Below, one piece after another: positions 8,550-24,889 of a stretch of DNA of 64,000 nucleotides. Source of the stretch: Desulfuromonadales bacterium. Lineage in GTDB: Bacteria; Desulfobacterota; Desulfuromonadia; Desulfuromonadales; JACZKF01. Location: assembly GCA_029289095.1 (NCBI GenBank), contig JARFUG010000004.1:13250-77249 (forward strand), written 5' to 3'. Each line of letters opens with the position of its first letter. Position 1 is the first letter of the stretch. Both the position numbers and the translations under genes were made by a program. The notes beneath the pieces are model-generated. The model was given only the letters and a program-made list of their open reading frames with translations, had not been told where the DNA came from and searched no databases.

Positions 8550-9163
8550 GATTTCAGCTCCTCGAAAACGACGCAGAGCCGGACTCGTTCTCCGGCCTGC
8601 GGGATGCCCTCCCCCTTTATTAAAGCTTCCGGCAAAACGGGCCGCCCGTCAAGAGTCGACTCCGAGCATCCTTTCCAGAACGCGGGGTCCTGACGGGCGA
8701 GAAAATCTTTCATTTCCGATAACGGCAGCACGATCCCCTTCAGAAGAAAAATCGGCCCGAGCTCTTCCATCATCAGATTGAAGAGCTTGACTTTGATCTC
8801 CCCCTCTCCCGAAGGGACGGCGCTCTCCTCACCGTGGGAAATGCCTCCACGCATAGCGGAGTAGAATCCCCCGCGCCGCATGGTAGCCCCAACCAGCCCC
8901 GGCATTGCTCCTGAGAGGGCAAGGGTCGAGCCGTCGCGCAGCACGGCAGTCTTAATGTCGTCGACCGGTTTGTAGTCGAGGAAGATCGTGGTAATCCGCC
9001 CCCTGACGAAGTCGGGATCGAGACGCAGTTGCCGACAGAGAAGATCCTCCAGCGTCGACCCCGCCTCCACGCGAAAGGAAAAACCTTGCTGCACTATCGC
9101 AGAGAAGGCGCGGACCTGTTCCCGATGCAGAAAGAGCTGAAGAGTGCTGCATGCCTGACTCAT
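8546..9163 (-). CDS. Uncharacterised protein; N-terminal half resembles a MoaD/ThiS beta-grasp fold without a terminal GG
   Basis: 205 aa. RVEAGSTLEDLL...ITTIFLDYKPVDDIKTAVLRDGSTLALSGAMPGLVG follows the beta-grasp sulfur-carrier pattern. The second half (EGEIKVKLFNLMMEELG...) has no family I recognise. Translationally coupled to the MoaD-like gene. Confidence 0.6.
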   Translation of the reverse strand: MSQACSTLQLFLHREQVRAFSAIVQQGFSFRVEAGSTLEDLLCRQLRLDPDFVRGRITTIFLDYKPVDDIKTAVLRDGSTLALSGAMPGLVGATMRRGGFYSAMRGGISHGEESAVPSGEGEIKVKLFNLMMEELGPIFLLKGIVLPLSEMKDFLARQDPAFWKGCSESTLDGRPVLPEALIKGEGIPQAGERVRLCVVFEELKS

Positions 9164-9336: not shown

Positions 9337-11073
9337 TTACCAGTTGAAGACCTGATCCATCTCCTCATCGCTGACGGAGAATGTCTGGTTGTGCGGTGCG
9401 ATCGGGTCGGTGTAGAAGAAGCGCGGCAGGCGGTCGTGCTGAGCGGTGAAGCCGGCCCGCTTGTTGAAGTCGCGCTCTGCCGAGAGGACCTTCTTCCCGA
9501 GGGCCACGACATCGTCGCCGGTGAGGTTGGTACCGTAGAAAGCATTGAGCATGTCGAGCAGAGCCTGGAACGTTTCGGGCTGATCCATGATCGCGAAGGC
9601 GATGAAGAGGCACATGCCCGTGGAGTCGATGGCGGCCGTGGCGATCTGCAGATCGCGCGAGAGGGCTACCTGTCCCTCGGTCTTGAGAGGATCGACATCC
9701 CCGCCGACCTTCAGGATGTTGGTGGCGATGGCGTAGCCGGCGGTGTGGTCGGCGCCCTGAGTGCTGGTGGCGTAGGTGACGCCTATTCCCTGGATGGGGC
9801 GGGGGTCGTAGGCGGGGATCGCCTGCCCCTTGACGACGGGCACCTTCTCGACGCCGAAGACCTTGCCGGTAATCTCGGCCCCGCACCCGAGGATGCGCCC
9901 GAGGGGCGTTCCCTTGGCGACCTCTTCCACGAGGCGAATGGCGGCTGCGCCATCACCGAACTCGGCCAGGCCTGCGTCCATGGCAACGCCGATGGTCGCT
10001 CCCATCTCGATGGTGTCGACACCGATGTTGTCGTCCATATAATCAAGGCGGGCGATGACGTCGAGATCATCGATGCCGCAGTTGCCGCCGTGCGACCAGA
10101 CGGTCTCATACTCGGGCTGCTTGGTGACGTAGTTGCCTTCGGCGTCGTTGAAGATCCCGGAGCACTGGATGACGCAGCCGCGGTGGCAGCCGTGGGTGGC
10201 GCTGCCGCCGCGCTTGACCTCCAGCTCGGCCTGGGCCTCGCCGCTGATCTTGGCGCCGTTGGGGAAGACACCGGTCTTGAAGTTGTAGGTCGGATAGCCG
10301 CCGGCCTCGTTGAGAACGTTCGTGAGGACGTTGGTGCCGTAAGCGGGGAGCCCTTCGCCGGTGACGGGGTGCTTGCGCAGCCCTTCGACGAACTTGCGGT
10401 TGGCGTCGCGGTACTTCTCGGGATTCACGGGGGTACGGTGCTTCAGGCCGCTGTCATCGAGGATGATCGCCTTGACCTTCTTGGAACCCATGACGGCGCC
10501 GACGCCGCCGCGGCCGCAGTGCCGGGTGGGGCGAAGCTCGGGGTCGGTGCAGGCGATGGAAGCGGCAAGAAGCTGACGCTCACCGGCCGAACCGATGGTG
10601 ACGTAGGCAGGCTTGTCGCCGTACTCGCCGCGCAGCTTCTCGACCAGGGGATAGTTGTCGAGGAGCTTCAGGCTGTTGTCGACGGAGATCTTCACGCCGT
10701 CCTTGTTGATGAAGATCTTGTAGAGCTCGTCCCCTTCGGGCTTGCCTTCAAGGATAATCGCTGCATAGCCGAGGCGCGCAAGCACCTGGGCGGCCTGCCC
10801 GCCTGCATTGGACTCCTTGATGGTGCCGGTCAGGGGGCTCTTGCAGCCGACCGAGAGGCGGCCCGTCATGGCGCCGGTGGAGCCGCTCAGCATCCCCGGG
10901 GAGATGACGAGCTTGTTTTCCGCCCCAAGGGGATGGGCGAGCGGGTGCACTTCCTTGTTGACGATGAGGGAGGTCGTCGCTCTGCCCCCCAGTCCGAGGT
11001 ACTCGCCGACCGGTTCGGTCGTCATCTTCGGGCCGCCCTGGGCGCCCATGTCGATTCTGAGAATCTTGTCCAT
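9337..11073 (-). CDS. aor: Tungsten-type aldehyde:ferredoxin oxidoreductase (AOR family)
   Basis: Real start is MDKILRIDMGAQGG at 11073, with GGAG upstream. 578 aa carrying AOR N-terminal and catalytic-domain blocks (GGRATTSLIV, GLGYAAIILEG, CHRGCVIQC, TQGADHTAG). The 1009-aa ORF in the track is read-through into mftF in another frame. Confidence 0.93.
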   Translation of the reverse strand: MDKILRIDMGAQGGPKMTTEPVGEYLGLGGRATTSLIVNKEVHPLAHPLGAENKLVISPGMLSGSTGAMTGRLSVGCKSPLTGTIKESNAGGQAAQVLARLGYAAIILEGKPEGDELYKIFINKDGVKISVDNSLKLLDNYPLVEKLRGEYGDKPAYVTIGSAGERQLLAASIACTDPELRPTRHCGRGGVGAVMGSKKVKAIILDDSGLKHRTPVNPEKYRDANRKFVEGLRKHPVTGEGLPAYGTNVLTNVLNEAGGYPTYNFKTGVFPNGAKISGEAQAELEVKRGGSATHGCHRGCVIQCSGIFNDAEGNYVTKQPEYETVWSHGGNCGIDDLDVIARLDYMDDNIGVDTIEMGATIGVAMDAGLAEFGDGAAAIRLVEEVAKGTPLGRILGCGAEITGKVFGVEKVPVVKGQAIPAYDPRPIQGIGVTYATSTQGADHTAGYAIATNILKVGGDVDPLKTEGQVALSRDLQIATAAIDSTGMCLFIAFAIMDQPETFQALLDMLNAFYGTNLTGDDVVALGKKVLSAERDFNKRAGFTAQHDRLPRFFYTDPIAPHNQTFSVSDEEMDQVFNW

Positions 11074-11222
11074 TGCTTCTCCTTTTCCTTTCATCCAGTA
11101 GTGGATAGAAAAATCTCCTTTCCCCAGGGAGGCTCGACCGTTTCCCGTCGAACCCGGTGGCCGGGCGCCATGAGAGATGATCTCTTTTAGGCGCTCAGGC
11201 TCGGAGATGTGAACATGTCCTT

Positions 11223-12659
11223 TCAGAAAACAAGGGGCATGCGCCTTTGAAATTGAAGTCTGTAGCTGGCGAAGGTCCTCTGGGCCATGCAACCGCGAAA
11301 GACGCCGCTTCCGTACGCGAGGTGCTCCGAAAGATAGAAAAACAGAAATACGGCGGGATTCAGATCGGGACGGCGCACGTACCAATCCACGGCGGCAGGC
11401 CACAGCACAACGATAAGGAGTACGGGCCACGCGGCCGGCCATGTCAGTGCAAGAGCAATCAGCGGTACACCGTAATAGCGTACCAGATGGAAACCTAGGT
11501 AATAGACGAGACTCGCGAATGTTCGAACACGAGATGCGATCACCTGCAGAAAGCCGAGGGAAAAGCCCGGCCTTTTCGATTCCGACCGGATGACGACCGC
11601 GTCGGCAGCCAGAAGGATCGCCGCACCGAGAAACCAGCTCAGTCCCCCTGCGAGGAGGCCGACGACGCAACAGGCCAGGACGCCGCAAAGCAGCGGCGGG
11701 AATGCCATCTTCTTGCGCCGTTCGGGGTGGAGGGCCTGCAGGAGCCCCTCCGAGGTGCCGTATTCGAAGCGCCGCTTCAGAAAAGCCGGAAGATAGCTGC
11801 GGTGAGCATGCCAGACTCGTCCCTTCGGGCGATAGATGATACGAAAGCCGCCGTCGCGCAGACGCCAGGTCAGGTCGACGTCTTCGCCGACGTGCATCTC
11901 CGAGCGGAATCCGCCGACCCGTCTGAACGCGTCGCGACGCACCAGCAGGTTGCAGCTTGGCAGGTAGAAGGTGTCGTCCCCCCCCTGCCCGGAGCGTTCG
12001 TGCTTGCCGAGGCTGAGACTCGACATGACCGCTTCGTAGCGGTCGAGAGCCGAGGAGCGGTACATGCCGTCCACCAGTCCGCCGATCGCCGCCACCTCGG
12101 GATCGGCAAAGACGTCGATCAGCTCCCTCAGCCAGGGGACCGAGGCGGTGCAGTCTGAATCGATGAAGGCGAGAATCTCGCCTGTCGCCGCTTCGGCGCC
12201 GCGGTTGCGGGCCGCGGCCGGCCCCCTCCCACGCCCACCGGAGGGCAGGACCGTGGCCCCGAAAGCGCGGGCGACGTCGGCGCTGCCGTCGCTGCTGCCG
12301 TCGTCGACGACGATCACTTCCAGCAGCTCCGCAGGATAATCGATCAAGGAGAGGGAGGTGAGGCACTCGCGCAGCTCCTCTTCCCGGTCCTTAACAGGGA
12401 TCACGACGCTAACCCTCGGCAGGTCCGCGGAAGTCTGTTCAACCGCCCCGATCCGCTGCAGAAATCCGCGTTTGGCCAACTCCTCCAGGGCACGGGCCGC
12501 CCCCTCGGAAGCCGGAGAGAGAGGAGCCTCCGCCATCTGCCTCACCAGCGAGAGGAGCGCTCCGTTGAGTCGCACCATGCGCAGAGGACGGGGCGCCACG
12601 AGAAAGGTCCCCTCGGCCGACTCGCGGATGCTGATGTCGGAGGCGAGAGCGTAAGTCAT
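11223..12659 (-). CDS. mftF: Mycofactocin-system glycosyltransferase (GT2 core + C-terminal membrane domain)
   Basis: 478 aa. VSVVIPVKDREEEL...VVDDGSSDGS...IDSDC GT-A core, preceded by a ~90-aa N-domain and followed by multiple TM helices. This is the architecture of MftF, and the gene lies in the same strand block as mftABC. Confidence 0.85.
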   Translation of the reverse strand: MTYALASDISIRESAEGTFLVAPRPLRMVRLNGALLSLVRQMAEAPLSPASEGAARALEELAKRGFLQRIGAVEQTSADLPRVSVVIPVKDREEELRECLTSLSLIDYPAELLEVIVVDDGSSDGSADVARAFGATVLPSGGRGRGPAAARNRGAEAATGEILAFIDSDCTASVPWLRELIDVFADPEVAAIGGLVDGMYRSSALDRYEAVMSSLSLGKHERSGQGGDDTFYLPSCNLLVRRDAFRRVGGFRSEMHVGEDVDLTWRLRDGGFRIIYRPKGRVWHAHRSYLPAFLKRRFEYGTSEGLLQALHPERRKKMAFPPLLCGVLACCVVGLLAGGLSWFLGAAILLAADAVVIRSESKRPGFSLGFLQVIASRVRTFASLVYYLGFHLVRYYGVPLIALALTWPAAWPVLLIVVLWPAAVDWYVRRPDLNPAVFLFFYLSEHLAYGSGVFRGCMAQRTFASYRLQFQRRMPLVF

Positions 12660-13552
12660 CCCTGCGTCTCCGGGAGAAGGCCTTCGGCCTTGATGATCCT
12701 GAAAAGCCCGTCTGCGACGTCTTCAACCGAACCGGTGTGCATCTTCCCTTCCCGGGCCTTGATGCCGCCGGAGAGAAGCGCCAGAATCCGTTCATAGGCG
12801 GGAAGATTCGCATCCGGGGTCGTCACCCGCAGCGGGTTCGGACGGGGCAAGCCGTACTCGGCCTCTTGAAGCAAAGCCCCTGTTCCCCCGAGCTCCCAGA
12901 AGGGAAGACCGAGTTCCGGTAGCCCCCACGACTCCACCTTTCCCTCGACAGAGCGCATGAGCGCATCCTGACTTGGATAGCGAGGATCGCGAAGACCGTC
13001 CTCGAAGAAGACCGCGCAGGGGATTGAAGTCGCGACCTTGAGCCGGGCGCCCTTGTCTCCCTTGCGCAAAATCTCGAGTCCCCCCTCGAAACGGGCGAGG
13101 GAAAGGGCCGCCGTCACGTAGGGGATCCCTCTGGCGGCCGCAGCGACGGCAGGAGCGGGGTCGCTGCCCCGGTCGAGGAGGCGATTGCCGCAGAAGAAGA
13201 GATCGGGCTTGAGGATTTCGATCGCCCGGGAGAGGACCCTGGCCTCGGCCACCGCGTCGCCCCCCTTCAGACCCCCGTCCCAGATGCGGATGACACGGTC
13301 CGCCCCCATCGACAGGGCGAGGCGCAGGGAATCGTCGAGACGCTTCGGACCCACCGCCACGACCGTCACCTGAGCGCTCCCCGCATCGCGGAAGCCAAGC
13401 GCCTGCTCCAGCGCGCCGAGGTCCGCAGGGTTGGGGATCCGCCGCACCTCCTTGTCGCGAATTCCCGCACCCTTTTCCATCAGACGCACGGGGGTGCGGG
13501 GGTCGCAGACTTCACGGAGCAGGACGAGTATGTTGAGTTTGGAATTGGACAT
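12656..13552 (-). CDS. fixA: Electron transfer flavoprotein beta subunit (FixA/EtfB)
   Basis: ATG at 13552 (MSNSKLNILVLLREV). NPADLGALEQALGFRD and VTVVAVGP match EtfB blocks. About 298 aa, longer than typical EtfB. Overlaps mftF by 4 nt. Confidence 0.85.
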   Translation of the reverse strand: MSNSKLNILVLLREVCDPRTPVRLMEKGAGIRDKEVRRIPNPADLGALEQALGFRDAGSAQVTVVAVGPKRLDDSLRLALSMGADRVIRIWDGGLKGGDAVAEARVLSRAIEILKPDLFFCGNRLLDRGSDPAPAVAAAARGIPYVTAALSLARFEGGLEILRKGDKGARLKVATSIPCAVFFEDGLRDPRYPSQDALMRSVEGKVESWGLPELGLPFWELGGTGALLQEAEYGLPRPNPLRVTTPDANLPAYERILALLSGGIKAREGKMHTGSVEDVADGLFRIIKAEGLLPETQG

Positions 13553-13574
13553 AATAAACCTCAAAATTGCTTTC

Positions 13575-13865
13575 TCAGGTCATCCTGAACGACACCCCGA
13601 ACCCCCCCCGGGGATAGCGCCAGAGCTTGAACGCTCCCGGGCGGCAGACGACATAGCAGGTGCCGCATTCGAGGCAGCCGTCGTACACGAAGGTCATCTT
13701 CTTCTCCTCCTCCGACCAGGTGTAGCAGCGCGCCGGGCAGGAGTTGGTGCAGGCCCGCTGGTCGCAGCGGACGCAGATCGCGGGGTCGAGAACGATGTGC
13801 GCCTCGCGATCGATGTTGAAGCTGGTATAGTCGAAAATTTCGTCGATATTCATAGCGATCTCCAT
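13575..13865 (-). CDS. fixX: FixX ferredoxin-like protein
   Basis: 96 aa. CVRCDQRACTNSCPA...YDGCLECGTCYVVC...WRYPRGGFGVSFR matches the FixX pattern. An alternative ATG at 13853 forms an ATGA overlap with the fixC stop. Confidence 0.85.
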   Translation of the reverse strand: MEIAMNIDEIFDYTSFNIDREAHIVLDPAICVRCDQRACTNSCPARCYTWSEEEKKMTFVYDGCLECGTCYVVCRPGAFKLWRYPRGGFGVSFRMT

Positions 13866-15148
13866 CCCGAGTAGACGTCGGCCAGCGCGTTCTTGAGCCC
13901 GACCTTTTCTTTGACGGCGCGCATCAGCAGTTGGGTCATCGTGCTTTTGGGGTTGCCGTCGATGCGGTAGATCTCGTCCATGATGCCGCAGACCAGTTCT
14001 GGATAGCTGGTGTAGATGCGATCGTTATGGAGCATGTGCGGTGCGCGCTTGTAGAGCTTGAGATCCTTCAGGACGAAGCTCTCCTCCAGCATCCGCCGGT
14101 AGATCGAGAGTCCCGATTTGGTGAAGTCGCGGCTGTTGTGAGCCTCCAGCGCCGCCTTGCCGGCAAGGACCCCCGACTGGGCCGCCAGGTTGATCCCCTC
14201 CAGGTTGAGCCCGGTGACGATGCACATGGCCGCGGCGTCGCCCGCTACCATGATTCCGTCGCCGACGAGTTCGGGCATCATCTCGTATCCCCCCTCCGGG
14301 ACGAGATGCGCGGAGTATTCCAGAAGCCGCCCCCCCCTGAGGAGTTTGGCCATCTGAGGCTGGGCCATGAAACGGTTGAGCAGGTCGTAGGGGGTTTTGC
14401 CGCTATCGGCGAGGCTCCCCAGATGCAGGACGAGGCCGAGAGAGAGGGCGTCGTAGTTGGTGTAGAGAAAGGCGCCGCCTCGAACCCCTTCGGTGCAGCC
14501 GACGATTTCTGTGGAGGCCCCCTGGTCGCGCACCAGTCCGAAGCGCTCGTCGATCGTCTCTTTGGGCATCTCGATCAAGGCCTTGACTCCGATCGCCATG
14601 TGTGAACGATCGAATTTGGGACGACGGAGGCCCGCCTTCTCGGCGGTGAGGGAAAGAACGCCGTCGGCGGCGATCACAATCGGGGCCTTGAGCGCTCCGC
14701 CGTCGCGAAGGGTCGTCACGCCGGTGATCTTCCCCCCTTCCCGGATGACGTCGTCGACGGTGGTGCGGGTGATGAGGGTCGCACCGGCTTTCTGCGCCTC
14801 TTCGGCGAGCCAGCGGTCGAACCTTGGGCGATGGACGGTGTAGCCGTTGTAGGGGGTGCGGTCGCTCGCCTGGGTGTCGAAGTTGACGTTGAAGGTCGCC
14901 TCACCGGTCATGAAGGTCAGCCCCTTCTTGACGATGTGACGCTCCAGGGGGGCCTGATCCCAGAAATCGGGGAAGAACTCTTCAAGCGCCGTCAGGCGGT
15001 GAAGAACTCCTCCGAACATGTTCTTTTCGCCCGGGAAGGCGCCCCTCTCGAGGAGGGCGACGTCGAGCCCGGCCTTGGCCATGGTCAGCGCCGCCGAGGA
15101 GCCGGCCGGACCGGCGCCGACGACGATGGCGTCAAAGTTTTTCTTCAT
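13850..15148 (-). CDS. fixC: FixC, FAD-dependent ETF:quinone-oxidoreductase-like flavoprotein
   Basis: 432 aa. FDAIVVGAGPAGSSAA dinucleotide fold with overall FixC/ETF-QO-like layout. Overlaps fixB by 4 nt. Confidence 0.9.
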   Translation of the reverse strand: MKKNFDAIVVGAGPAGSSAALTMAKAGLDVALLERGAFPGEKNMFGGVLHRLTALEEFFPDFWDQAPLERHIVKKGLTFMTGEATFNVNFDTQASDRTPYNGYTVHRPRFDRWLAEEAQKAGATLITRTTVDDVIREGGKITGVTTLRDGGALKAPIVIAADGVLSLTAEKAGLRRPKFDRSHMAIGVKALIEMPKETIDERFGLVRDQGASTEIVGCTEGVRGGAFLYTNYDALSLGLVLHLGSLADSGKTPYDLLNRFMAQPQMAKLLRGGRLLEYSAHLVPEGGYEMMPELVGDGIMVAGDAAAMCIVTGLNLEGINLAAQSGVLAGKAALEAHNSRDFTKSGLSIYRRMLEESFVLKDLKLYKRAPHMLHNDRIYTSYPELVCGIMDEIYRIDGNPKSTMTQLLMRAVKEKVGLKNALADVYSGWRSL

Positions 15149-16161
15149 GCGGCACCTCCCATGACCGACTTGACCCGCTTGAGCAGCAGCGGCAGGACTT
15201 CACTGACATCGGCCACGAACCCCTCGTCCGCATTGGGGAAGATCGGAACCTTGGGATCGATGTTCACCGCGACGATCTTCTTCGAATCCTTGATCCCCCC
15301 CAGATGATGCATCGAGCCGGAGATCCCGAGGGCGAGGTAAAAGCGCGGGGCAACCGAGCGGCCGGTCTGTCCGACCATCCGCTCGAAACCGGTCCAGCCG
15401 AGGTCGTACACCGGGCGGGTCACGCCCAGAGAGACGTTGAGAAGGCGGGCCAGTTCCTGGAGTTGTTCAAAAGATTGACGATTGCATCCGAGACCCGCGG
15501 CGAAGATGACTTCGGCCTCGGAGACATCCACCGTCTGGGGATCGGGGGGGATGCGTTCGACGATGCGGGTCGGGGCAGCGCCGGGAAGAACCTCGGGACT
15601 CCAGACGCTCACTACGGGCTCTCTGCGGTGCATCGACGGAAGAACGACAGCGCTGATCACCCTTGTATCCATCGTCAGGACCAGGGGGACGCTCCCATCC
15701 CACACCCTGGCCTCGGCGACCTGCCGGCCAAGGGCCGGACGCCGGATCTTGAGCCCCTCTTCCCATCGCTCGAATGCGATCGCTTCGGTCACGATCCCCC
15801 CTTGAATCTCGGCGGCGACCAGCGGAGCCAGGGCGGCCCCGAGGTCGTTGTGAGGAAGAAGGAGGACCTTGGCGCCAAGATCGCGAACCGCCGCGGCCAA
15901 GAGCTTCCCCTGGACCTCGAGGAAATCGGCGACATCGCTTTCGATCACCGTCACGGCAGAGGCGCCGTAGGGGGCGAACTCCGAAAAAATCAGGTCGGCA
16001 GCGTCGCCGAAGCAGATCGCTCCCCATCCTCTCTGCAGCGCCCCGGCAAGGCGGGAGGCCTCGGAGAGGATCCCTTTGCCGGCATCGTCGAGTCCGCCTT
16101 CCGGCAGATCGACAAACGCAAGGATGGTAGGGTGCGTCTCGGGAGAAATCGTCGCGGGCAT
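15145..16161 (-). CDS. fixB: Electron transfer flavoprotein alpha subunit (FixB/EtfA)
   Basis: 338 aa. C-terminal FAD block RFYLALGISGSMHHLGGIKDSKKIVAVNIDPKVPIF is diagnostic for EtfA. Start overlaps the OYE gene stop by 1 nt. Confidence 0.9.
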   Translation of the reverse strand: MPATISPETHPTILAFVDLPEGGLDDAGKGILSEASRLAGALQRGWGAICFGDAADLIFSEFAPYGASAVTVIESDVADFLEVQGKLLAAAVRDLGAKVLLLPHNDLGAALAPLVAAEIQGGIVTEAIAFERWEEGLKIRRPALGRQVAEARVWDGSVPLVLTMDTRVISAVVLPSMHRREPVVSVWSPEVLPGAAPTRIVERIPPDPQTVDVSEAEVIFAAGLGCNRQSFEQLQELARLLNVSLGVTRPVYDLGWTGFERMVGQTGRSVAPRFYLALGISGSMHHLGGIKDSKKIVAVNIDPKVPIFPNADEGFVADVSEVLPLLLKRVKSVMGGAA

Positions 16162-18122
16162 CAGATCTCCCTCCCTACCCGATGCCCTTCCCAGATGGCC
16201 ATGTCGACCTTGCGGGGGGCAACCGAGTCGCCGATGCGGTAGAGCTCCTTGACCTTCCCTTTCAGCTCCTTATAGAGGGCCTCCTCCACCCTCTGCCCCA
16301 TGGCCAGGACGATGGAATCGAAGGGTCCCCACTCCTCCCAGACGTTGGAGTAGACGTTGAATCCCTTGACGGTCTTTGCGCCGGTCTCGCCGCCGATCTC
16401 CATCACTGCGATGTCGGGAGTGAACGTCGTCCCCTTCTGCAGGAGGCGCTGACGGGTCAGGTAAAGGTCCTGGGTCGGTCCGAGCTCGGCGCCGATAAAG
16501 AGGCTGGAGGTGATCATGTGCACCGTCTTCCCCTGGTCGGCGAGAAACTCGGCGGTGGCGGTGGCCCTGTGATGGCCGTCGTAGTCGATAAGGCAGACTT
16601 TCTGGCCCAGTTCGGGCTTGCCGTCGAGCACCTGCCAAACGTTGTAGACCGATGGGCCGTCGGCCCCGCCGACCGGGTGCTCCTTGGGGACGCTTCCGGT
16701 GGCGACAATGACGACTTCGGGCTTGTCGGCCAGGACCTGCCCTGCAGTCACCTCGGCCCCGAGCTTCACCCTCACCCCGGCCTTGTCCACCTGCTCCTTC
16801 TCGTTGCGGATGATGACTCCGAACTCGTCGCGGCCGGTCCCCTTCATGGCGGTGCGGACCTGTCCGCCGAGGGTTTCGTTACGGTCGTACAGGGTGACGT
16901 CGTGGCCGCGGCGGCCAGCCATCTTTGCCGCCCACATGCCGGCGGGGCCACCGCCGACGACCGTCACCTTCTTCTTCACGGCCGCCCTCTCCAGCGTCCC
17001 TTCGCCCCACTCCTTCTCCCGTCCGATAGCCGGATTCTGCACGCAGCCAAGTGACTTGTTCATGCCGATGCGGCCGATGCACCCCTGGTTGCAGGCGATG
17101 CAGTAGCGGATATCCTCGAGCCTTCCCTCCTGAGCCTTCTTCGGCAGGAAGGGGTCGCAGATCAGGGCACGACACATGCCGATCATGTCGGCCTGACCGC
17201 CGGCCAGGACCTTCTCGGCCATGACCGGGTCGTTGATACGCCCGGTGCAGAAGACAGGCAGTTTGAGTCTTTCGCGAACGCCGGCCGCCAGGGGAATGGT
17301 GTACCCCAGGGGGGTGTGCATGGAGCCTTCCACCAGGTAAAGGTTGTAGAAGGTGGCGATGGAGAGATCCATAAAGTCGATGAGGCCGCTCGCCTCGAAG
17401 CGAGCACAGATCTCCTGCACCTGGGCCAGGTCGAGACCGCCCGGGATCATCTCGTCGGCGCACATGCGGATGCCGACCGGGAAATCGGCGCCCACCGCTT
17501 TGCGCACCGCGGAGATGAACTTGAGGGGGGCCCGCATCCGGTTCTCCAGGCTCCCGCCGTACTCGTCGCTGCGGAAGTTCGTCAGAGGGGAGAGAAACTG
17601 TCGGGCGAGGCTGGAATGGCCGAACTGCAGCTCAATCCCGTCAAAGCCCCCTTCCCGCACGTGGACGGCGCTGAGGGCGAAATAGCGCGCCACTTCCTCG
17701 ATGTCCTCGTGCTCCATTTCCTTGGGCGTCTCACGGAAGAGGACGTCGGGGATCGGAGAGGGCGCCCAGACGGGAAGCCGCGAGATGGAACCGTCCCCCT
17801 GCTGGCCGTTGTGGTTGAGCTGGGCGAAGATCTTGGCGTCGAACTGGTGGACGTAGTCGGTGACCTTCCTGAAGCCGGGGACCACCTCCGCATGGTAGAC
17901 GTCGATCAGCTTCTCGTAAGCCATGTCCGTGGGGTGGACGGTCAGTTCCTCGGTGATGATGAGGCCGGCGCCCCCCTTGGCCCGCTCTCCCCAGTAGTAC
18001 ATCTGGCGCTCGCTGGGTAGATTCTTCACCGCCAGGTTCGTCAGGTGCGGCTGAAAGGAGATGCGGTTCTTCACCTCGACCGAGCCGAGCTTCAGGGGGG
18101 AGAACAGGTGTTGAAACATCAT
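16161..18122 (-). CDS. FadH/Old-Yellow-Enzyme-family Fe-S flavoprotein (FMN TIM barrel + 4Fe-4S + FAD/NAD(P) domain)
   Basis: 653 aa. OYE N-terminus LFSPLKLGSVEVKNRISFQPH, cluster motif YCIACNQGCIGR...LGCVQNP, then VTVVGGGPAGMWAA Rossmann domain. Same architecture as 2,4-dienoyl-CoA reductase, enoate reductases and trimethylamine dehydrogenase. Confidence 0.9.
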   Translation of the reverse strand: MMFQHLFSPLKLGSVEVKNRISFQPHLTNLAVKNLPSERQMYYWGERAKGGAGLIITEELTVHPTDMAYEKLIDVYHAEVVPGFRKVTDYVHQFDAKIFAQLNHNGQQGDGSISRLPVWAPSPIPDVLFRETPKEMEHEDIEEVARYFALSAVHVREGGFDGIELQFGHSSLARQFLSPLTNFRSDEYGGSLENRMRAPLKFISAVRKAVGADFPVGIRMCADEMIPGGLDLAQVQEICARFEASGLIDFMDLSIATFYNLYLVEGSMHTPLGYTIPLAAGVRERLKLPVFCTGRINDPVMAEKVLAGGQADMIGMCRALICDPFLPKKAQEGRLEDIRYCIACNQGCIGRIGMNKSLGCVQNPAIGREKEWGEGTLERAAVKKKVTVVGGGPAGMWAAKMAGRRGHDVTLYDRNETLGGQVRTAMKGTGRDEFGVIIRNEKEQVDKAGVRVKLGAEVTAGQVLADKPEVVIVATGSVPKEHPVGGADGPSVYNVWQVLDGKPELGQKVCLIDYDGHHRATATAEFLADQGKTVHMITSSLFIGAELGPTQDLYLTRQRLLQKGTTFTPDIAVMEIGGETGAKTVKGFNVYSNVWEEWGPFDSIVLAMGQRVEEALYKELKGKVKELYRIGDSVAPRKVDMAIWEGHRVGREI

Positions 18123-18150
18123 GGCAGAGAATCCTTATTCACAGTGGGTT

Positions 18151-18228
18151 CGTAGGGGCGATCCTTGTGATCGCCCTGGCTTGGGTGATCGCCCGCAGTT
18201 CCGGGCGAACACAAGGTTCGCCCCTACG
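18151..18228. repeat. REP-like nested palindromic element (GTAGGGGCGA ... TCGCCCCTAC)
   Basis: cgtaggggcgatccttgtgatcgccc...gggcgaacacaaggttcgcccctacg. An outer 10-bp stem encloses two internal GGGCGA(N)TCGCCC hairpins. It fills the mftC-OYE intergenic gap. Confidence 0.7.
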
Positions 18229-18236
18229 TCAATGTT

Positions 18237-19271
18237 TCACGCCGCTGCCGCCTTCTCGGCAATGGACGTCACGCACCTCTCCAGACATTCGGGGTCCCCC
18301 CCCTCGATGTCGTTCTTGAGGTGATAGGCCACCGCCGGGCAGCCGCCGTGGCACTGATCGAAGCGCCGGCAGTCCTCGCAGGAATGGATGCGCAATCCGC
18401 GCAGGGAGGCGAAAATTTCCGAATCGTCCCAGATCGCCTGGAAGTCCCTTTCACGCAGAGATCCGGCCTTGAACTGGTCGAGTTGCATGAAGGCACAGGG
18501 GTAGACGTTCCCCGTGGGGCCGACACAGCAGGTCAGCTTGGCGGCTCCGCACAGATTGAGCCCCAGCCCCTGGCGCTCCTGGGCCGTGAGAGAGAAGAAG
18601 CTGTCCCCGGTGCGCACGTCCCCCCGGCTCTCGAGCCAGTTGGAAAAATCGAGGAGCTGCTGAGGCGAAGGGCGCAGGGCTTCCCAGTTGTCGCTGCCGC
18701 GCCCGGAGGGGCGGAAGCGACTGACCCGCAGAGTAACTCCAAGCCTTTCAGCCAGATCGTAGAGGGCCGGAACCTCTGTGGTGTTCTGTGCGGTCAGCAC
18801 CGTGTTGATGCTCGTCGGGATCGGGCTTGCCGCAAGAAGTCGCAGCGCGCGCAGCGCATCGTCATAGGTTCCAGCGCCGCGGATCGCTTCGCAGGTCGCC
18901 TTTTCCGCGCCGTCGAGACTGACCTGAATGGCGACAAGTCGGGTGCGCGAGAGCCTCTCGACCAGACCGGCATCGATGAGCGTCCCGTTGGTCGAGATGC
19001 AGGTCATGATCCCCCGGGCATGGCAGGCATCCAGTATCTCTTCGAAGTCGGTGCGCATGAAGGGCTCCCCGCCGCCGAAATTGATCTGGAACACCCCAAC
19101 CTTGTGCATCTGGTCGACGAGTGAAAGCGCCTCTGCCGTGGAAAGCTCCCCTTCAGCCGGCTCTCCGGAGGAGGAAAGACAGTGCTCGCATCGGAGATTG
19201 CACGCCAGAGTGACTTCCCAGGTCAGGTTCACCGGGGCCCGTAGCCCGGCCTCAACAAATCGGTTGCTCAC
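18237..19271 (-). CDS. mftC: Mycofactocin radical SAM maturase (SPASM domain)
   Basis: 344 aa. VNLTWEVTLACNLRCEHCLSSSG radical-SAM cluster motif. C-terminal Cys-rich SPASM region CGAAKLTCCVGPTGNVYPC...CEDCRRFDQCHGGCPA. Overlaps mftB by 20 nt. Confidence 0.93.
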   Translation of the reverse strand: MSNRFVEAGLRAPVNLTWEVTLACNLRCEHCLSSSGEPAEGELSTAEALSLVDQMHKVGVFQINFGGGEPFMRTDFEEILDACHARGIMTCISTNGTLIDAGLVERLSRTRLVAIQVSLDGAEKATCEAIRGAGTYDDALRALRLLAASPIPTSINTVLTAQNTTEVPALYDLAERLGVTLRVSRFRPSGRGSDNWEALRPSPQQLLDFSNWLESRGDVRTGDSFFSLTAQERQGLGLNLCGAAKLTCCVGPTGNVYPCAFMQLDQFKAGSLRERDFQAIWDDSEIFASLRGLRIHSCEDCRRFDQCHGGCPAVAYHLKNDIEGGDPECLERCVTSIAEKAAAA

Positions 19272-19509
19272 GGAGAAAACCCTTTTCTATAAGTTGCGCC
19301 AGGAAACTGCGCAACGTGTTCTTTTGCCGTTCCGAAAGCCCCTCGGGAAACTCGTCTTTGCGACGGACCGTCCCGAAGAAGTCGGCGGGAAGAAGGCTGC
19401 CGGTTTCGGCGAAGAGAAGGCGCGGCCCCCTGGAATCGTAAAACAGGAGGCCGAACCCTTCTTGCCTCACGCGGCAGGCCGGGTGCAGCTTGATGCCTGC
19501 CGCCGCCAT
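19252..19509 (-). CDS. mftB: Mycofactocin precursor-binding chaperone (PqqD/RRE-like)
   Basis: 85 aa. HPACRVRQEGFGLLFYDSRGPRLLFAET resembles the MftB core. Start is 1 nt after the mftA stop. Confidence 0.85.
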   Translation of the reverse strand: MAAAGIKLHPACRVRQEGFGLLFYDSRGPRLLFAETGSLLPADFFGTVRRKDEFPEGLSERQKNTLRSFLAQLIEKGFLREQPIC

Positions 19510-19510
19510 C

Positions 19511-19627
19511 TCAGTAGACCCCGCAGATGCCGTCGATGGCGAGCTCTTCGATCTGGATTTCTTCCAGGATCTGAGGCTCTTCGTTGCAGGTGTCGCAGGT
19601 CTCGTTGATCTGTCTTTCGTTCTCCAT
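19511..19627 (-). CDS. mftA: Mycofactocin precursor peptide
   Basis: 38 aa from the ATG at 19627 (GGAG 8 nt upstream): MENERQINETCDTCNEEPQILEEIQIEELAIDGICGVY. The C-terminal IDG(I/M)CGVY is the MftA hallmark. Confidence 0.9.
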   Translation of the reverse strand: MENERQINETCDTCNEEPQILEEIQIEELAIDGICGVY

Positions 19628-19690
19628 GTGTATCTCCTTCCGTCTGTTGGTTCGGCCCGTGATCAGGCCCTCTTTGGGGAAGTCAATACT

Positions 19691-19705
19691 GCAACCGCAG
19701 TGCCA
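19691..19705 (-). promoter_or_regulatory. Sigma-54 (-24/-12) promoter of the mftA operon
   Basis: Minus strand reads TTCTTGGCACTGCGGTTGCAGT, an exact TGGCAC-N5-TTGC, about 65 nt upstream of the mftA ATG. Confidence 0.75.
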
Positions 19706-19828
19706 AGAATCAAACATTGATTTATTATGTGTTTTAGACAGTTAGCAGATAAAGAACGGAAGCGATCCGGCAAAGCTTGTGGAGAAATTGGACAATGGCG
19801 AATACTCCATTCACTCTCCCTCCTCCCT

Positions 19829-19868: not shown

Positions 19869-19999
19869 GTTTCCATAAACCGATGTTCTGTATTTTCAGG
19901 AAAATTCCTTGCGGCGAAATGGAATAAAAAATGCTATCCCTTCCACAGGCCATTCCCCCTTCAGGCCCGGTCGATGAGCCCTTTGCACGGAGTGCCGGC

Positions 20000-20503
20000 A
20001 TGCACGAAAAGAATTCCCACTGTTCATATTGCGGAACCATGTTCCTCGATTTGGACCGCGGCCGGCGCCATTGCAGGTCGTGCGGCAACATATCCTACGT
20101 GAACCCCCTCCCGGTCGCCGTCGTCATCCTCCCCGTCGCCGAGGGCGTCGTCGTCATTCGCAGGAATACCGAACCGCGCAAAGGGACTCTCACCCTTCCT
20201 GGGGGATACATCGATATCGGGGAAACCTGGCAGGAAGCGGCGCGGCGCGAAGCCCTCGAAGAAACTGGAATAGAGGTAGAGGCCGGCCGGATCATTCTCT
20301 ATGATGTCCAGAACGGGTTCGACGACACTCTGGTCATTTTCGGTCTTGCGCCGAAGCAGTCCGGAGATGTCCTCAAGCCGTTCAGCTCGGAAGAGACGCA
20401 GGAAGTTTTGCTGATCGAAGCGCCGATCGAGCTCGGGTTTCCGATGCACAGCCAAGTGGTGGAACGATATTTTGCGGAAAGGGAGGCTGGCGAGGGGCAC
20501 TAG
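20000..20503 (+). CDS. NUDIX hydrolase with N-terminal zinc-ribbon (NudC-like layout)
   Basis: ATG at 20000 ([12 protein letters not shown]...RHCRSCG gives CxxC-x13-CxxC). Nudix box [24 protein letters not shown]. Divergent from mftA. Confidence 0.8.
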
Positions 20504-20506
20504 ACC

Positions 20507-22414
20507 CTATTCCCCGCAGGCCGGCAGCATCACGGTAAACTCCGACCCCTCGCCGACCCTGCTCTCCAGCCGGATCTCCCCTCCGTGCCGCTTTACGATG
20601 TTGTAGGAGATGGCAAGGCCAAGGCCGACTCCTCTGCCGACTTCCTTGGTCGTGAAGAACGGCTCCCAGATCCGATCGACAATGTTTTGCGCCATGCCGC
20701 ACCCGTCGTCGCGAATGACGATGGAGATCATTCCCTCGTCGATCTTTTTGGACGTCACTTCCACCGTGCCCGGCCCTTCGAAGGCTTGATGAGCGTTTAC
20801 CAGCAGATTCATGCAGACCTGGCGCAGCCCTGAAGGATCCCCCATCACGCCGGGGAGATTTTTCTCCAGGTTTGTCACAACCCTGATTCGCCTGTAGTTC
20901 GACTGGTATCTGACCAACTCGAGAATTTCCAGCAGCACTGCGTTCATGTCGACCTTGACGGCCAGCCCGTCGGACTTGCGCCCGAAGGTGAGCAGATTGC
21001 CGATAATCCCCTTGCAGCGATAGGACTCTCGGACAATGACCTCAAGATAATGGGGAAAGACATCGAGGCGCGGGTCCTCCTTCAGTGCGGATTCATCGCG
21101 AAAACGGCGCAAAAGCGCTTCGGCAAAACCGGCCACGGAGGTTAGGGGGTTGTTGATCTCGTGTGCAATGCCTGTTGCAAGGACGCCGATGCTCGACATC
21201 TTTTCCGTCTGGATCAGGTGCATCTCCTGGAGGCGCTTTTCCGAGACATCCCTGAAAAAGACGAGAGCCCTGTTCTTTTCTCCCAGGGCATCCTTGATGG
21301 GGGTGGCTGTGATATCCACATAACGGGTCTTGTGACCATCGGCGCGCACGACGAGAGAGGAATCGACCCGCTCTCCCCTGAGAGCTCTCTCGACGGGACA
21401 CTCCAGCGGTTTGGAAGCGCACTCCGGATGAAAGATCTCATGGCAGGGATTGCCGGACCGGGTCTCGGCGGGAAAGAGCTGGGGGCTGATGGCGTTGTGA
21501 TGCTGGATCAGGCCGCTGCTGTCGTAGACCGTGATGCCGTCTCCGATCGAATCGAAGATCGTCTGAAGCTCGTTCGTCTTGTTCCGAAGGTCGACTTCGG
21601 CCTGTTTGCGCTGGGTGATGTCCTGCGTCGTGCCGTAGAGCTTCACGACCTTGCCCGCCGTATTGACCGACGGCTCGACGATGGTGTAGACCCATTTCAG
21701 CGTGCCGTCGCCAAACAGGAGACGGTGCTCGATCTCGTAACTCCTGCCGTGCTCGACTCCCATCCGCAGATGGTCGATGACCATCGGGTGGTCCTCAGGG
21801 TGGACCACCCGAGCGAAAGCTTCCTGGGTCGTTTCTTCCGGTTGCAGCCGCATGATGCGCAGCAGTTCTTCAGAAGCCTTCACCTCGCCCGTCGCGGGAT
21901 TGAAGCTCCATGAACCCACATGCGTCATGGCCTGTGCTTTCGCCAGGTTGTACTCGCTCTCGGCCAGCGCCTTTTCAGCCCTGTTTTTCTCGGTGATGTC
22001 GACGAGAACGGCCAGACACTCCTCGCCCGATTCGGTCGCCATCGCCTCGATGCGCACATGCCGGGGACGCTCGGTCGCAAGCTGCAGCCTGCAGGTTTCC
22101 TTACCCTCCGACTGGAAAACGGTTCGAAGATAGTTGCCGAAAAGGAAGCGGTCCCGGTCGGCCACGCAATCCTCGAACCTGCGCCCGATCAGCGATTCGC
22201 GCTCCATCCCGAGAAGGCGGACACCGAAAAGGTTTACCGACTGGATGATCCCCTGCCGATCGATGGTGAAGTAGCCCACGGGGGCAAAATCATACAGCAA
22301 GGCAAATTTGTTGCGTGACGCTTCCAACTCCTGCCGTGAGCGGCGCAATTCTTCAATTTTGGATTCGAGTTCGCGCTGGTGGGCGCGTAGTTCACATTTG
22401 GCCTTGCTCGTCAT
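20507..22414 (-). CDS. Cytoplasmic multi-PAS sensor histidine kinase (NtrB-like HisKA + HATPase)
   Basis: Coiled-coil N-terminus, three PAS-like regions, H-box GIAHEINNPLTS, and N/G boxes (LLVNAHQA, DDGCGM, GVGLGL). ATG at 22414 has GGAG upstream. An alternative GTG at 22438 overlaps the VWA stop. Confidence 0.9.
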   Translation of the reverse strand: MTSKAKCELRAHQRELESKIEELRRSRQELEASRNKFALLYDFAPVGYFTIDRQGIIQSVNLFGVRLLGMERESLIGRRFEDCVADRDRFLFGNYLRTVFQSEGKETCRLQLATERPRHVRIEAMATESGEECLAVLVDITEKNRAEKALAESEYNLAKAQAMTHVGSWSFNPATGEVKASEELLRIMRLQPEETTQEAFARVVHPEDHPMVIDHLRMGVEHGRSYEIEHRLLFGDGTLKWVYTIVEPSVNTAGKVVKLYGTTQDITQRKQAEVDLRNKTNELQTIFDSIGDGITVYDSSGLIQHHNAISPQLFPAETRSGNPCHEIFHPECASKPLECPVERALRGERVDSSLVVRADGHKTRYVDITATPIKDALGEKNRALVFFRDVSEKRLQEMHLIQTEKMSSIGVLATGIAHEINNPLTSVAGFAEALLRRFRDESALKEDPRLDVFPHYLEVIVRESYRCKGIIGNLLTFGRKSDGLAVKVDMNAVLLEILELVRYQSNYRRIRVVTNLEKNLPGVMGDPSGLRQVCMNLLVNAHQAFEGPGTVEVTSKKIDEGMISIVIRDDGCGMAQNIVDRIWEPFFTTKEVGRGVGLGLAISYNIVKRHGGEIRLESRVGEGSEFTVMLPACGE

Positions 22415-22434
22415 GCTCACTCCGCTCCGACCTG

Positions 22435-23823
22435 TCACCAGTGCGTACGCCCTTCAGGATCAAGGGCAGGCGCCGCCCCCCCGCCACCGCGCGTGTAGTA
22501 CTCGCGGTAATCGTATGCCTCTTCTTGTTCAACCTTCTTCACCGATCTCATCGACCGGTGCTCCTCCTCGAGATAGATACTGCGGAAAAGGTCTTCGACA
22601 ATCGCGTTCAGCTCCTCGACACTTTTGACGACTTCCACCCTGTCGCACCAGGCGCCGTAAGTCTCGATCACGCAATCGCCCCTCTTCCACAACGAGCGCT
22701 CTTCAGGCGTCAGCCAGAGCATGTATCCTGCCTTGTCTCTCACCTGTTCAAGCACCCAGTCGTTGGTCTTCCCGTAGTTGTTGCGGGCATCGCCGAGGAA
22801 GATGACTGCCGGTCTGCCGCGCAGGTTCTCGAGATACTTCTCCTTGAATTTCAGCAGGACCTTTCCGTAGTCGCTGTTGTCGTCGAGGTTGACGATCTTT
22901 CCGCCGTCGATCTCCTTCATCATCGCGTTGATCGGGGAGTTGGAGAGCATTTCGGTGATCTCCGCCAGTTCCGCGTTGAAAATGAAGCTCCTTACATCCA
23001 TCATCCGATTGTGCAGCGTGTGCAGCAGAAGGAGCATGAACTTCGAAGCGTGGCTGACGGAGAAGCTCACGTCGCACAGAACGACGAGACGCGGCTTCTG
23101 CTTGCGTTTGCGGCGCAGTTCGAGCAGAAAGGGCACCATGCCGTTGCGGTAGTTCTTCTGAATCGTGCGGATCACGTGGATCTTGCCGCGGTTCTCGCGG
23201 TTCTTAACCCGCCGGATATCCTTCTTCAGACGCAGGAGCATGCGCGTCACCGCATCCTGCATCGCATCGAGTTCCTGCTGGGAGAAGGTGACGTCGCGCT
23301 TCTGCCCGGCGGAATCCTTGAACGCCATGGTGACGGGATTTTGCGGCATCCGCATCGAGGGCCTGGGCGCCTCCATCGCCCCCTGGTAGTCCTTGAGCTT
23401 TATCTCGATTTCCGAGCCATCGAGCTGATCCAGATCCGTTTCCTTGAGGCTCTGAAGATCCTTCAGATCATTGGGGCTCAGGCCGGCATCGACCCCCGCC
23501 AGCGACATGTTGTCGTTGATCATCTCAGGATTGGTGCCGAGCATCTCCCCTTCCATGCTGATGATCGCTTCTTTCAACAAATCGTCTGGATCAATTCCCA
23601 TGCCGGCAGGGGCTGCGCTGAAGAAGCGATTGAACACTTTCTCGAAGATTGGAATGTCATGAACATTTTTCACCAGCGTCAAACGCAGCAGACTGCTCAC
23701 CTGGCCGCGCCCTTCAAGCCCGCCGTAAGCCAGGGCGCAAACGGCATCGAGGCTCTCCCCCGGAGAGACCCGCAGACCTTCCTTTCTCAGTTCAGCCACA
23801 AAACGCGTGATGACGGTTTCCAT
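22435..23823 (-). CDS. VWA domain protein (CoxE-like)
   Basis: 462 aa. N-terminus FVAELRKEGLRVSPGESLDA and C-terminal VWA block LVVLCDVSFSVS are typical of CoxE-type partners of MoxR ATPases. Confidence 0.85.
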   Translation of the reverse strand: METVITRFVAELRKEGLRVSPGESLDAVCALAYGGLEGRGQVSSLLRLTLVKNVHDIPIFEKVFNRFFSAAPAGMGIDPDDLLKEAIISMEGEMLGTNPEMINDNMSLAGVDAGLSPNDLKDLQSLKETDLDQLDGSEIEIKLKDYQGAMEAPRPSMRMPQNPVTMAFKDSAGQKRDVTFSQQELDAMQDAVTRMLLRLKKDIRRVKNRENRGKIHVIRTIQKNYRNGMVPFLLELRRKRKQKPRLVVLCDVSFSVSHASKFMLLLLHTLHNRMMDVRSFIFNAELAEITEMLSNSPINAMMKEIDGGKIVNLDDNSDYGKVLLKFKEKYLENLRGRPAVIFLGDARNNYGKTNDWVLEQVRDKAGYMLWLTPEERSLWKRGDCVIETYGAWCDRVEVVKSVEELNAIVEDLFRSIYLEEEHRSMRSVKKVEQEEAYDYREYYTRGGGGAAPALDPEGRTHW

Positions 23824-23827
23824 GCGA

Positions 23828-24727: not shown

Positions 24728-24743
24728 ATGAAAACCTCGTGAT

Positions 24744-24822: not shown

Positions 24823-24823
24823 G

Positions 24824-24864: not shown

Positions 24865-24889
24865 CAATCGTTACCTCACATTACGGTGA

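Follow-up and report, generated by a model that had tools for sequence, protein, structure and literature searches.

A window of 64,000 nucleotides from a Desulfuromonadales bacterium (contig JARFUG010000004.1, positions 13,250 to 77,249; "the window" denotes this whole stretch) carries a minus-strand block of mycofactocin (mft) genes that is interrupted by a flavoprotein of FadH/OYE type (OYE2) and by genes for an electron transfer flavoprotein (ETF) with its Fix partners. Read along the minus strand between 19717 and 11223, the block comprises mftA, mftB, mftC, a 114-bp gap with a hairpin, OYE2, etfA/fixB, fixC, fixX, etfB/fixA and mftF. Gene identities were assigned from NCBIfam (curated cutoffs) and Pfam scans of the window proteins, and the features of the block are as follows.

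19690 to 19705, minus strand: sigma-54 (-24/-12) promoter TGGCACtgcggTTGCA, an exact match to TGGCAC-N5-TTGCA, about 64 nt 5' of the mftA start
19511 to 19626, minus strand: mftA, precursor peptide of 38 amino acids; TIGR03969, 41 bits (cutoff 25), and NF040489 variant_MftA, 46 bits (cutoff 30)
19252 to 19509, minus strand: mftB, peptide chaperone; TIGR03967, 65 bits (cutoff 33)
18237 to 19271, minus strand: mftC, radical SAM/SPASM maturase; TIGR03962, 359 bits (cutoff 265), Pfam Radical_SAM and SPASM
18152 to 18227, no strand: palindromic element of 76 nt, resembling a repetitive extragenic palindrome (REP), within the 114-bp gap between mftC and OYE2; arms GTAGGGGCGA and TCGCCCCTAC
16161 to 18122, minus strand: OYE2, flavoprotein with FMN, 4Fe-4S and FAD domains in the architecture of FadH and trimethylamine dehydrogenase (TMADH); TIGR03997 mycofact_OYE_2, 986 bits (cutoff 793)
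15145 to 16161, minus strand: etfA/fixB, ETF large (alpha) subunit; Pfam ETF and ETF_alpha, best NCBIfam match mft_etfA (NF038209), 136 bits (cutoff 240)
13850 to 15148, minus strand: fixC, ETF:quinone oxidoreductase flavoprotein; PRK10015/PRK10157, about 380 bits, Pfam ETFQO_UQ-bd
13575 to 13865, minus strand: fixX, ferredoxin-like Fe-S subunit; PRK15449 FixX, 59 bits, Fer4 Pfam families, Cys motifs present
12656 to 13564, minus strand: etfB/fixA, ETF small (beta) subunit; Pfam ETF, 87 bits, mft_etfB (TIGR04503), 67 bits (cutoff 200)
11223 to 12659, minus strand: mftF, mycofactocin glycosyltransferase; TIGR03965, 387 bits (cutoff 280)

The mft genes form a mycofactocin core, in which an MftA ending in CGVY, with the conserved C-terminal region of 23 residues, is clustered with MftB, MftC and MftF that score above their curated cutoffs. 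The MftA peptide begins with MENERQ and ends in IDGICGVY (C-terminus EELAIDGICGVY), its gene is preceded by a ribosome-binding site that can be read in the sequence, and the C-terminus is invariant across all loci described below. A preliminary description of this DNA had begun the mftA open reading frame (ORF) at 19717, the end of its block; the resulting 68-amino acid (aa) product is disfavored because it would enclose the sigma-54 promoter at 19690 to 19705, and the start is most likely ATG 19626, giving the peptide of 38 residues.

The genes are closely packed. mftA and mftB are 1 nt apart, mftB and mftC overlap by 20 nt, and after the 114-bp spacing between mftC and OYE2 come overlaps of 1 nt (OYE2/etfA), 4 nt (etfA/fixC) and 16 nt (fixC/fixX), a gap of 10 to 22 nt between fixX and etfB (the real etfB start may be ATG 13552), and a 4-nt overlap of etfB with mftF. 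The gene order and overlaps given in the preliminary description were borne out by the NCBIfam and Pfam identities and by re-reading of the junctions, but its ending of the block at mftF was not: a same-strand gene for an aldehyde:ferredoxin oxidoreductase follows after about 150 bp, and with it the tightly packed minus-strand block spans 9337 to 19705.

The palindrome in the mftC-OYE2 gap folds as RNA at -55 kcal/mol (z -6.45) and has no T-run terminator; the transcript might be stabilized or partitioned there. It had been described as a REP element, and while the strong palindrome is real, no repetition was seen, there being a single copy in the 64-kb window. The length of the gap differs among loci, from about 35 to about 770 bp. 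At the head of the block, the sigma-54 element stands at a fixed distance from mftA in 73 of 78 related loci, and both this promoter and a second one upstream of a neighboring alcohol dehydrogenase operon (see below) fit TGGCAC-N5-TTGCW. No sigma-54 activator gene was found in the window; AcoR-like activators were observed near a few relatives (L020, L030, L055, and L080; loci are cited by number where they must be told apart). As part of our best explanation, which we rate at about even confidence, the block is a single sigma-54-driven operon.

A genome scan with the window MftC returned 80 loci, nearly all labeled Desulfuromonadales or Geobacteraceae, among them Geobacter argillaceus and Geobacter sp. 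OR-1. When these are counted together with loci fetched afterwards, the full order mftC-OYE2-etfA-fixC-fixX-etfB-mftF is present in 57, and 15 more are consistent with it but cut by contig ends, against four without the insert. This neighborhood comparison refutes a one-off rearrangement, the outcome that the preliminary description had named as fatal to its proposal. In Geoalkalibacter ferrihydriticus the layout is identical, down to the Nudix and aldehyde:ferredoxin oxidoreductase genes that flank the block in the window. A metagenome scan seeded with one protein gave no loci, and one seeded only with alignment-based ETF-alpha motifs gave 80, all of which (80/80) conform to the architecture: OYE2 is the next gene upstream in 51/51 judgeable loci (three were flagged by a distance filter only, OYE2 being present), mftC lies upstream in 28/28, and fixC and mftF lie downstream in 45/45 and 22/22, respectively.

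About half of the 80 metagenome loci represent a second lineage, with MftC only about 50% identical to that of the window and with nearest named ETF-alpha relatives, at 41 to 43% identity, in metagenome-assembled genomes of Syntrophorhabdales, Goldbacteria, and Deltaproteobacteria. One of its loci, the distant L088 (EtfA 38% identity), shares the operon, with a further radical SAM gene ahead of mftF. The 1-nt OYE2/etfA and 4-nt etfB/mftF overlaps recur at ETF-alpha identities of 38 to 63%, and their presence where the identity is only 38 to 48% upholds the view that the ETF genes are welded into the operon. Gene order is kept in more than 150 independent loci, and because the overlapping junctions are conserved in both of these deep anaerobe lineages, we regard the operon type as old and stable. 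As a side observation, a second radical SAM/SPASM gene between etfB and mftF is common in the second lineage (L088, 6766-7899; also L096, L106, and L119); its product is weakly similar to MftC (23-27% identity), and in L011 (12535-13671) the gene lies after mftF.

The Geobacter-group mft operon, then, regularly bears its own flavoprotein-to-quinone chain, which is a good candidate for passing electrons from mycofactocin to respiration without MftG, the glucose-methanol-choline (GMC) enzyme that serves mycobacteria. The individual components bear on this in different ways.

OYE2 belongs fully to TIGR03997, with a match over residues 5 to 653 of 653, and it aligns over its full length with 2-naphthoyl-CoA reductase (NCR; 6qkg, 334 bits), FadH (1ps9), TMADH (1djq, 246 bits), and histamine dehydrogenase. 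The 4Fe-4S motif CIACNQGC...GC and the first Rossmann motif GGGPAG are retained. In the third domain, at the position of the FadH NADPH-site motif IIGCGGIG, OYE2 reads LIDYDGHHRATA, and TMADH has there a degenerate ILNADTYFMAPS. The motif LIDYDGH(H/Q)RAT, which stands in place of GxGxxG, is kept in an alignment of 72 orthologs, and both OYE proteins of a Rhodococcus mft operon likewise have no second GxGxxG motif. As in TMADH, a NAD(P)H site is predicted to be missing from OYE2. The cysteine that carries the covalent 6-S-cysteinyl FMN of TMADH, Cys30, is also missing, with Leu in the aligned position (QPHLTNLA versus PHCIGA). The analogy with TMADH drawn in the preliminary description holds at the sequence level, given the end-to-end alignment, the GxGxxG motif lost alike in both, and the best solved relative of EtfB, which is the partner ETF of TMADH (1o94_C, 83 bits). 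Some OYE2 orthologs read CVADNQGC for CIACNQGC, the second 4Fe-4S cysteine being changed to aspartate.

The set of FixA, FixB, FixC, and FixX subunits is complete, and FixC matches that of Thermotoga maritima (7koe_C) with 284 bits. The composition and subunit sizes are those of the bifurcating T. maritima EtfABCX, and the best solved relatives of EtfA are bifurcating ETFs. We therefore considered whether the complex bifurcates, splitting the electrons of either mycofactocinol or NADH between menaquinone and ferredoxin, with the reduced ferredoxin serving MftC or the ferredoxin pool of the aldehyde:ferredoxin oxidoreductase. Mycofactocin, at about -255 mV (PMC11778925), would be suitably placed, close to the midpoint of menaquinone (-74 mV; PMC10734219) and ferredoxin (about -450 mV), and a ferredoxin-dependent aldehyde oxidoreductase is adjacent. 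However, of the motifs that mark group-2 bifurcating ETFs, RxGV and GxxSPTxV in the small subunit and RPxFGG in the large subunit (PMC10734219), none is conserved in the window or in the ortholog alignment of this ETF clade: at the RxGV site the window has RDKEV and most orthologs have DRGL, the GxxSPTxV site reads GTGALLQE in the window and falls in a variable stretch in orthologs, and the RPxFGG site reads RPALGR in the window and RKALGV in most orthologs. EtfB, moreover, scores best against a non-bifurcating ETF. The bifurcation that the preliminary description had entertained is thus disfavored, and we consider it very improbable. A non-bifurcating chain to menaquinone is the reading that we prefer.

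The ETF appears to be specific to this setting. When 1.8 billion representative proteins were scored, the EtfA clade proved narrow, with about seven representatives at 47% identity or more, followed by a drop from 285 to 178 bits, and every clade member examined sits in an mft operon (L083, L084, L086, L089). EtfA and EtfB of the window form a separate clade, since they fall below the cutoffs of mft_etfA and mft_etfB. This confinement bears on another hypothesis, namely that OYE2, though co-transcribed with the mft genes, never touches mycofactocin and instead acts on a different organic compound within the shared catabolic regulon, for instance an amine, an enoate, or an enal, reaching menaquinone through a private ETF-FixCX. 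Its family is certainly diverse, NCR, FadH, BaiCD, and bilirubin reductase all matching OYE2, and four loci keep the mft genes without the insert. In a further locus, L087 (1-5280), a tandem pair of OYE2-like paralogs, which score under the TIGR03997 cutoff, stands immediately before etfA and etfB, and fixCX is missing; this contig of only 5,983 bp showed no mft gene, and it suggests that the pairing of OYE with ETF predates the mft operon or extends beyond it. On the other hand, a module with a private substrate would hardly be expected between mftC and mftF in more than 150 loci with MftC identities down to about 50%, its ETF clade is found only in mft operons, and TIGR03997, whose cutoff OYE2 far exceeds, was built as a mycofactocin-system family. 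We judge a role apart from mycofactocin to be unlikely, and retain mycofactocinol as the preferred electron donor.

Pfam and NCBIfam scans of essentially all window genes found no mftD (FMN oxidative deaminase, TIGR03966), mftE (creatininase-family peptidase, TIGR03964), or mftG (TIGR03970, often located within 5 kb of mft genes) in the 64 kb, and no protein of the creatininase, FMN_dh, or GMC families. Queries of a Desulfuromonadales MftD and of the MftE of Rhodococcus sp. (L093) gave no tblastn match in the window, and a motif scan for the creatininase signature EQHGPHLP was negative there as well. Among relatives, 78 of the 80 MftC-scan loci and all 80 metagenome loci gave no tblastn match for mftD or mftE. 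A GMC signature of the PROSITE kind, applied with no positive control, was not found in the window or in 93 loci, and the window also has no TetR-type mftR. For complete Geobacter-group genomes, the absence of mftG is documented in a published supplementary table, which lists an MftC but neither MftG nor any other GMC enzyme for Geobacter pickeringii and Geotalea uraniireducens (PMC11778925); in the same work about 25% of mftC genomes have no mftG, and the authors call the solution used by such genomes an open question.

MftD does exist in this clade, though it is rarely linked to these loci. L011, which has no insert, encodes a bona fide MftD (TIGR03966, 667 bits) 1.7 kb from mftA; L006 and L089, which have the full insert, encode one (TIGR03966, above cutoff) directly after mftF; and L090 has an unlinked copy. 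An mftD and an insert are hence not mutually exclusive, as L011 viewed without L006 and L089 might have indicated. In the latter two loci (L006, 18939-20942; L089, 10001-12063) mftF and mftD are followed by a conserved 210-aa multi-pass membrane protein without a family match, which we rejected as an MftE substitute on account of its topology, the missing family match, and its restriction to this pair; the mftD reading frame of L006 is split at about 19960, possibly by an assembly error. In Rhodococcus sp. L093 (5365-15176) the order is mftA, mftB, mftC, mftD, two OYE genes, two small reverse-strand ORFs, mftE, and mftF, with the OYE_1 and OYE_2 genes overlapping by 4 nt and mftD immediately before them. 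This locus was used as the canonical MftE reference in place of those of Mycolicibacterium spp. (L091, L092), which have no mftE: there, mftABCD is followed by a fatty-acid-desaturase/AlkB-type gene, two rubredoxin genes, and a TetR gene, not by mftE and mftF.

These observations weaken the proposal, made in the preliminary description, that mftD has been functionally replaced. In that reading OYE2 would be an anaerobic, TMADH-like amine dehydrogenase that takes the place of MftD and converts AHDP, the product of MftC and the peptidase, to the keto-amide by oxidative deamination, with ETF-FixCX rather than O2 as the electron sink; the resulting mycofactocin would have been matured without MftD. 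The position of the insert between the biosynthetic genes mftC and mftF would suit such a role, as would the near-complete absence of mftD and mftE from the loci, the full-length alignment with the amine-oxidizing TMADH and histamine dehydrogenase, and the oxidation of C-N bonds by TMADH-type enzymes. Nor is MftD universal in mycofactocin genomes, the phylogenetic profiles of Haft placing it in 24 of 28 and MftE in 22 of 28 (PMC3023750). Yet mftD adjoins two insert-carrying loci, which speaks against its simple replacement by the OYE/ETF genes, and in Rhodococcus mftD and two OYE genes share one operon. A complete ETF and ETF:quinone oxidoreductase would also be out of proportion to the trace electrons released in cofactor synthesis, the operon encodes no substitute for the MftE peptidase, and OYE2 is without the Cys30 of TMADH. 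Replacement of MftD consequently seems improbable to us, more so than a role of OYE2 on an unrelated substrate, and we return to a function of the insert in re-oxidizing the finished cofactor.

The genes flanking the block point to alcohol and aldehyde oxidation.

26630 to 28120, minus strand: aldehyde dehydrogenase; Pfam Aldedh, 544 bits, and NCBIfam matches
26284 to 26299, minus strand: second exact sigma-54 promoter, 5' of the operon of the iron-containing alcohol dehydrogenase (Fe-ADH)
24890 to 26095, minus strand: Fe-ADH; best match TIGR04266 NDMA-dependent methanol dehydrogenase, 306 bits, below cutoff
23828 to 24727, minus strand: AAA ATPase; MadB/MadC-like NCBIfam matches of this gene and the VWA gene, below cutoff
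22435 to 23823, minus strand: VWA protein of the upstream operon, between the AAA ATPase and the PAS histidine kinase
20507 to 22438, minus strand: PAS histidine kinase of the upstream operon
19931 to 20503, plus strand: Zn-ribbon Nudix hydrolase, divergent from mftA; Pfam NUDIX, 56 bits
9337 to 11073, minus strand: aldehyde:ferredoxin oxidoreductase of the tungsten-enzyme family, about 150 bp after mftF; Pfam AFOR_N and AFOR_C

The upstream operon (20507-26095), comprising Fe-ADH, AAA ATPase, VWA, and PAS kinase genes, is linked to mft in at least 18 loci. Its Fe-ADH carries the motif NPKDYEV, and the hotspot TSNPKDYEVH was shown by Haft to mark the mycofactocin-linked Fe-ADH subfamily (PMC3023750). 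A methanol-oxidation cluster has been reported upstream of the mycofactocin genes in G. pickeringii (PMC4358379). A literature search for the meaning of "Mad" in MadB/MadC did not find it. The aldehyde:ferredoxin oxidoreductase gene follows mftF in 37 of the 57 full loci, as well as in L081, L084, L096, L097, and others; downstream of it in the window, both on the minus strand, lie a conserved 205-aa ORF without a family match (8546-9163) and a ThiF/MoeB-like adenylyltransferase gene (7505-8323), and in L084 it is followed by a ThiS-like gene. Most loci have the Nudix gene beside mftA in divergent orientation, and the L011 ortholog weakly matches NAD+ diphosphatase (NudC-like). The methanol dehydrogenase of Bacillus methanolicus is activated by a Nudix protein, and the arrangement seen here hints that the Nudix protein handles a bound nicotinamide cofactor of the Fe-ADH. 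The 2011 Rhodococcus profile of Haft likewise placed an "NADH pyrophosphatase" among the proteins ranked together with the mycofactocin system. Two long ORFs in this region were rejected as genes, each having no family match: the 599-aa plus-strand ORF at 9391-11190 is a shadow of the aldehyde:ferredoxin oxidoreductase gene, and the minus-strand ORF at 20024-20500 is a shadow of the Nudix gene. The rest of the window is occupied by housekeeping genes, among them dnaE, accA, panBC, and those of ribonucleotide reductase. At 51394-52737 (minus strand) a radical SAM/SPASM protein of 447 aa is encoded that is not related to the mft block; in L080 a protein of similar size matches TIGR04311, "putative metalloenzyme maturase", and lies beside tungsten-enzyme genes.

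We propose that the operon makes a mycofactocin-type cofactor, through mftA, mftB, mftC, and mftF, and at the same time specifies a dedicated path for electrons from this cofactor into the menaquinone pool, the two being co-expressed from one sigma-54 promoter. Nicotinoprotein-type Fe-ADHs, such as that of the neighboring operon, would reduce mycofactocin. OYE2, with FMN and a 4Fe-4S cluster and without a NAD(P)H site, would re-oxidize the resulting mycofactocinol and hand single electrons to its dedicated, non-bifurcating EtfAB, as TMADH does to its own ETF. FixX and FixC, the latter as ETF:quinone oxidoreductase, would then pass them to menaquinone and on to Fe(III) or another form of anaerobic respiration. 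As mycofactocin lies at about -255 mV and menaquinone at -74 mV, this transfer would run downhill. In anaerobes without MftG, OYE2-ETF-FixCX would in this way do the job that MftG does in mycobacteria. An electron outlet had already been suggested in the preliminary description, and that idea fits well with the Fe-ADH, aldehyde dehydrogenase, and aldehyde:ferredoxin oxidoreductase context and with the tables of MftG-less Geobacter; only its bifurcating variant has lost ground.

Several observations count against this proposal. Four related loci (L011, L020, L041, and L080) lead from mftC directly to mftF, so the cofactor does not require the insert, barring a copy at another site in the genomes concerned. 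The Rhodococcus mft operon has OYE_1 and OYE_2 with no ETF within the 15-kb stretch of L093, and OYE2 may for this reason have a role that is independent of ETF. The chemistry known for the enzyme family of OYE2 is the reduction of C=C bonds or the oxidation of C-N bonds, not the oxidation of an alpha-hydroxy amide. Finally, both EtfA and EtfB score below the cutoffs of the NCBIfam models for mycofactocin-associated ETFs. Weighing these points, we consider the case for a non-bifurcating chain from mycofactocinol through OYE2, ETF, and FixCX to menaquinone, serving alcohol and aldehyde oxidation, to be evenly balanced. Within it, we infer that OYE2 acts on mycofactocin(ol), which way the electrons flow, and that menaquinone accepts them. 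A more specific formulation, in which OYE2-EtfAB-FixCX is a mycofactocinol:menaquinone oxidoreductase, that is, a respiratory entry complex and the counterpart of MftG in MftG-less genomes, perhaps acting on a variant mycofactocin matured without MftD and MftE, is put forward more tentatively, and we would sooner doubt it than rely on it.

Re-oxidation of mycofactocin is known only from mycobacteria, where MftG carries it out, and this type of locus offers a testable candidate for genomes that have no MftG. If the proposal is correct, mycofactocin biology would extend from aerobic Actinobacteria to anaerobic Fe(III)- and metal-reducing members of the Geobacter group growing on methanol or ethanol, these metal reducers would oxidize alcohols through a peptide-derived cofactor in place of NAD, and the orphan "mycofactocin system FadH/OYE oxidoreductase" families would gain a function. 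The locus also raises the question of what structure the cofactor has in systems without linked mftD and mftE genes.

The co-location of ETF and OYE genes with mft genes is known to curators, as the names of the NCBIfam models for mycofactocin-associated ETF (NF038209, alpha; TIGR04503, beta) and FadH/OYE proteins 1 and 2 (TIGR03996 and TIGR03997) attest, and the G. uraniireducens mycofactocin cluster was drawn by Haft in 2011 (Figure 2). The statement in the preliminary description that an ETF module within an mft operon had not been described must be narrowed accordingly; in the library that was searched, no paper joins "mycofactocin" with "ETF" or "electron transfer flavoprotein", and we found the partnership with FixCX named nowhere. 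OYE2 is a full TIGR03997 member and mft_etfA is the best match of EtfA, but the window proteins score 136 against 240 (EtfA) and 67 against 200 (EtfB), and the models describe neither a FixCX partnership nor a function.

Compared with the canonical mftABCDEF(+mftG) systems of Mycobacterium and Rhodococcus, the window shares the MftA core ...IDG(M/I)CGVY, the MftB, MftC, and MftF proteins above their cutoffs, and the link to nicotinoprotein-type alcohol dehydrogenases and alcohol metabolism. It differs in having no mftD, mftE, mftG, or TetR-type mftR, in five additional genes between mftC and mftF, in its sigma-54 promoter, in an MftA that best fits the "variant-type" model, and in its anaerobic Desulfuromonadales host. 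With FixABCX/EtfABCX of Azotobacter vinelandii and T. maritima (PDB ID: 7koe) it has in common four subunits of similar sizes, a ferredoxin-like FixX, and menaquinone as the likely end point, whereas the genes run fixB-C-X-A behind an additional dehydrogenase gene, conservation of the bifurcation motifs is lacking, and OYE2, not NADH, is the probable electron donor. The three-domain FMN/4Fe-4S architecture, the degenerate nucleotide motif of the third domain, and the coupling of dehydrogenase to ETF genes are shared with TMADH and its ETF from Methylophilus methylotrophus W3A1 (PDB ID: 1o94), the coupling in the window being seen at the genetic level; the similarity of OYE2 to TMADH is modest (246 bits, with NCR and FadH scoring higher), its substrate is presumably no methylamine, and the window ETF is also wired to FixCX. 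The closest functional parallel would be MftG (PMC11778925), for which the same job of feeding electrons from mycofactocinol into the respiratory chain during alcohol oxidation is proposed here, although the proteins belong to unrelated families: a GMC flavoenzyme in the one case, and an OYE/FadH Fe-S flavoprotein with ETF and FixCX in the other.

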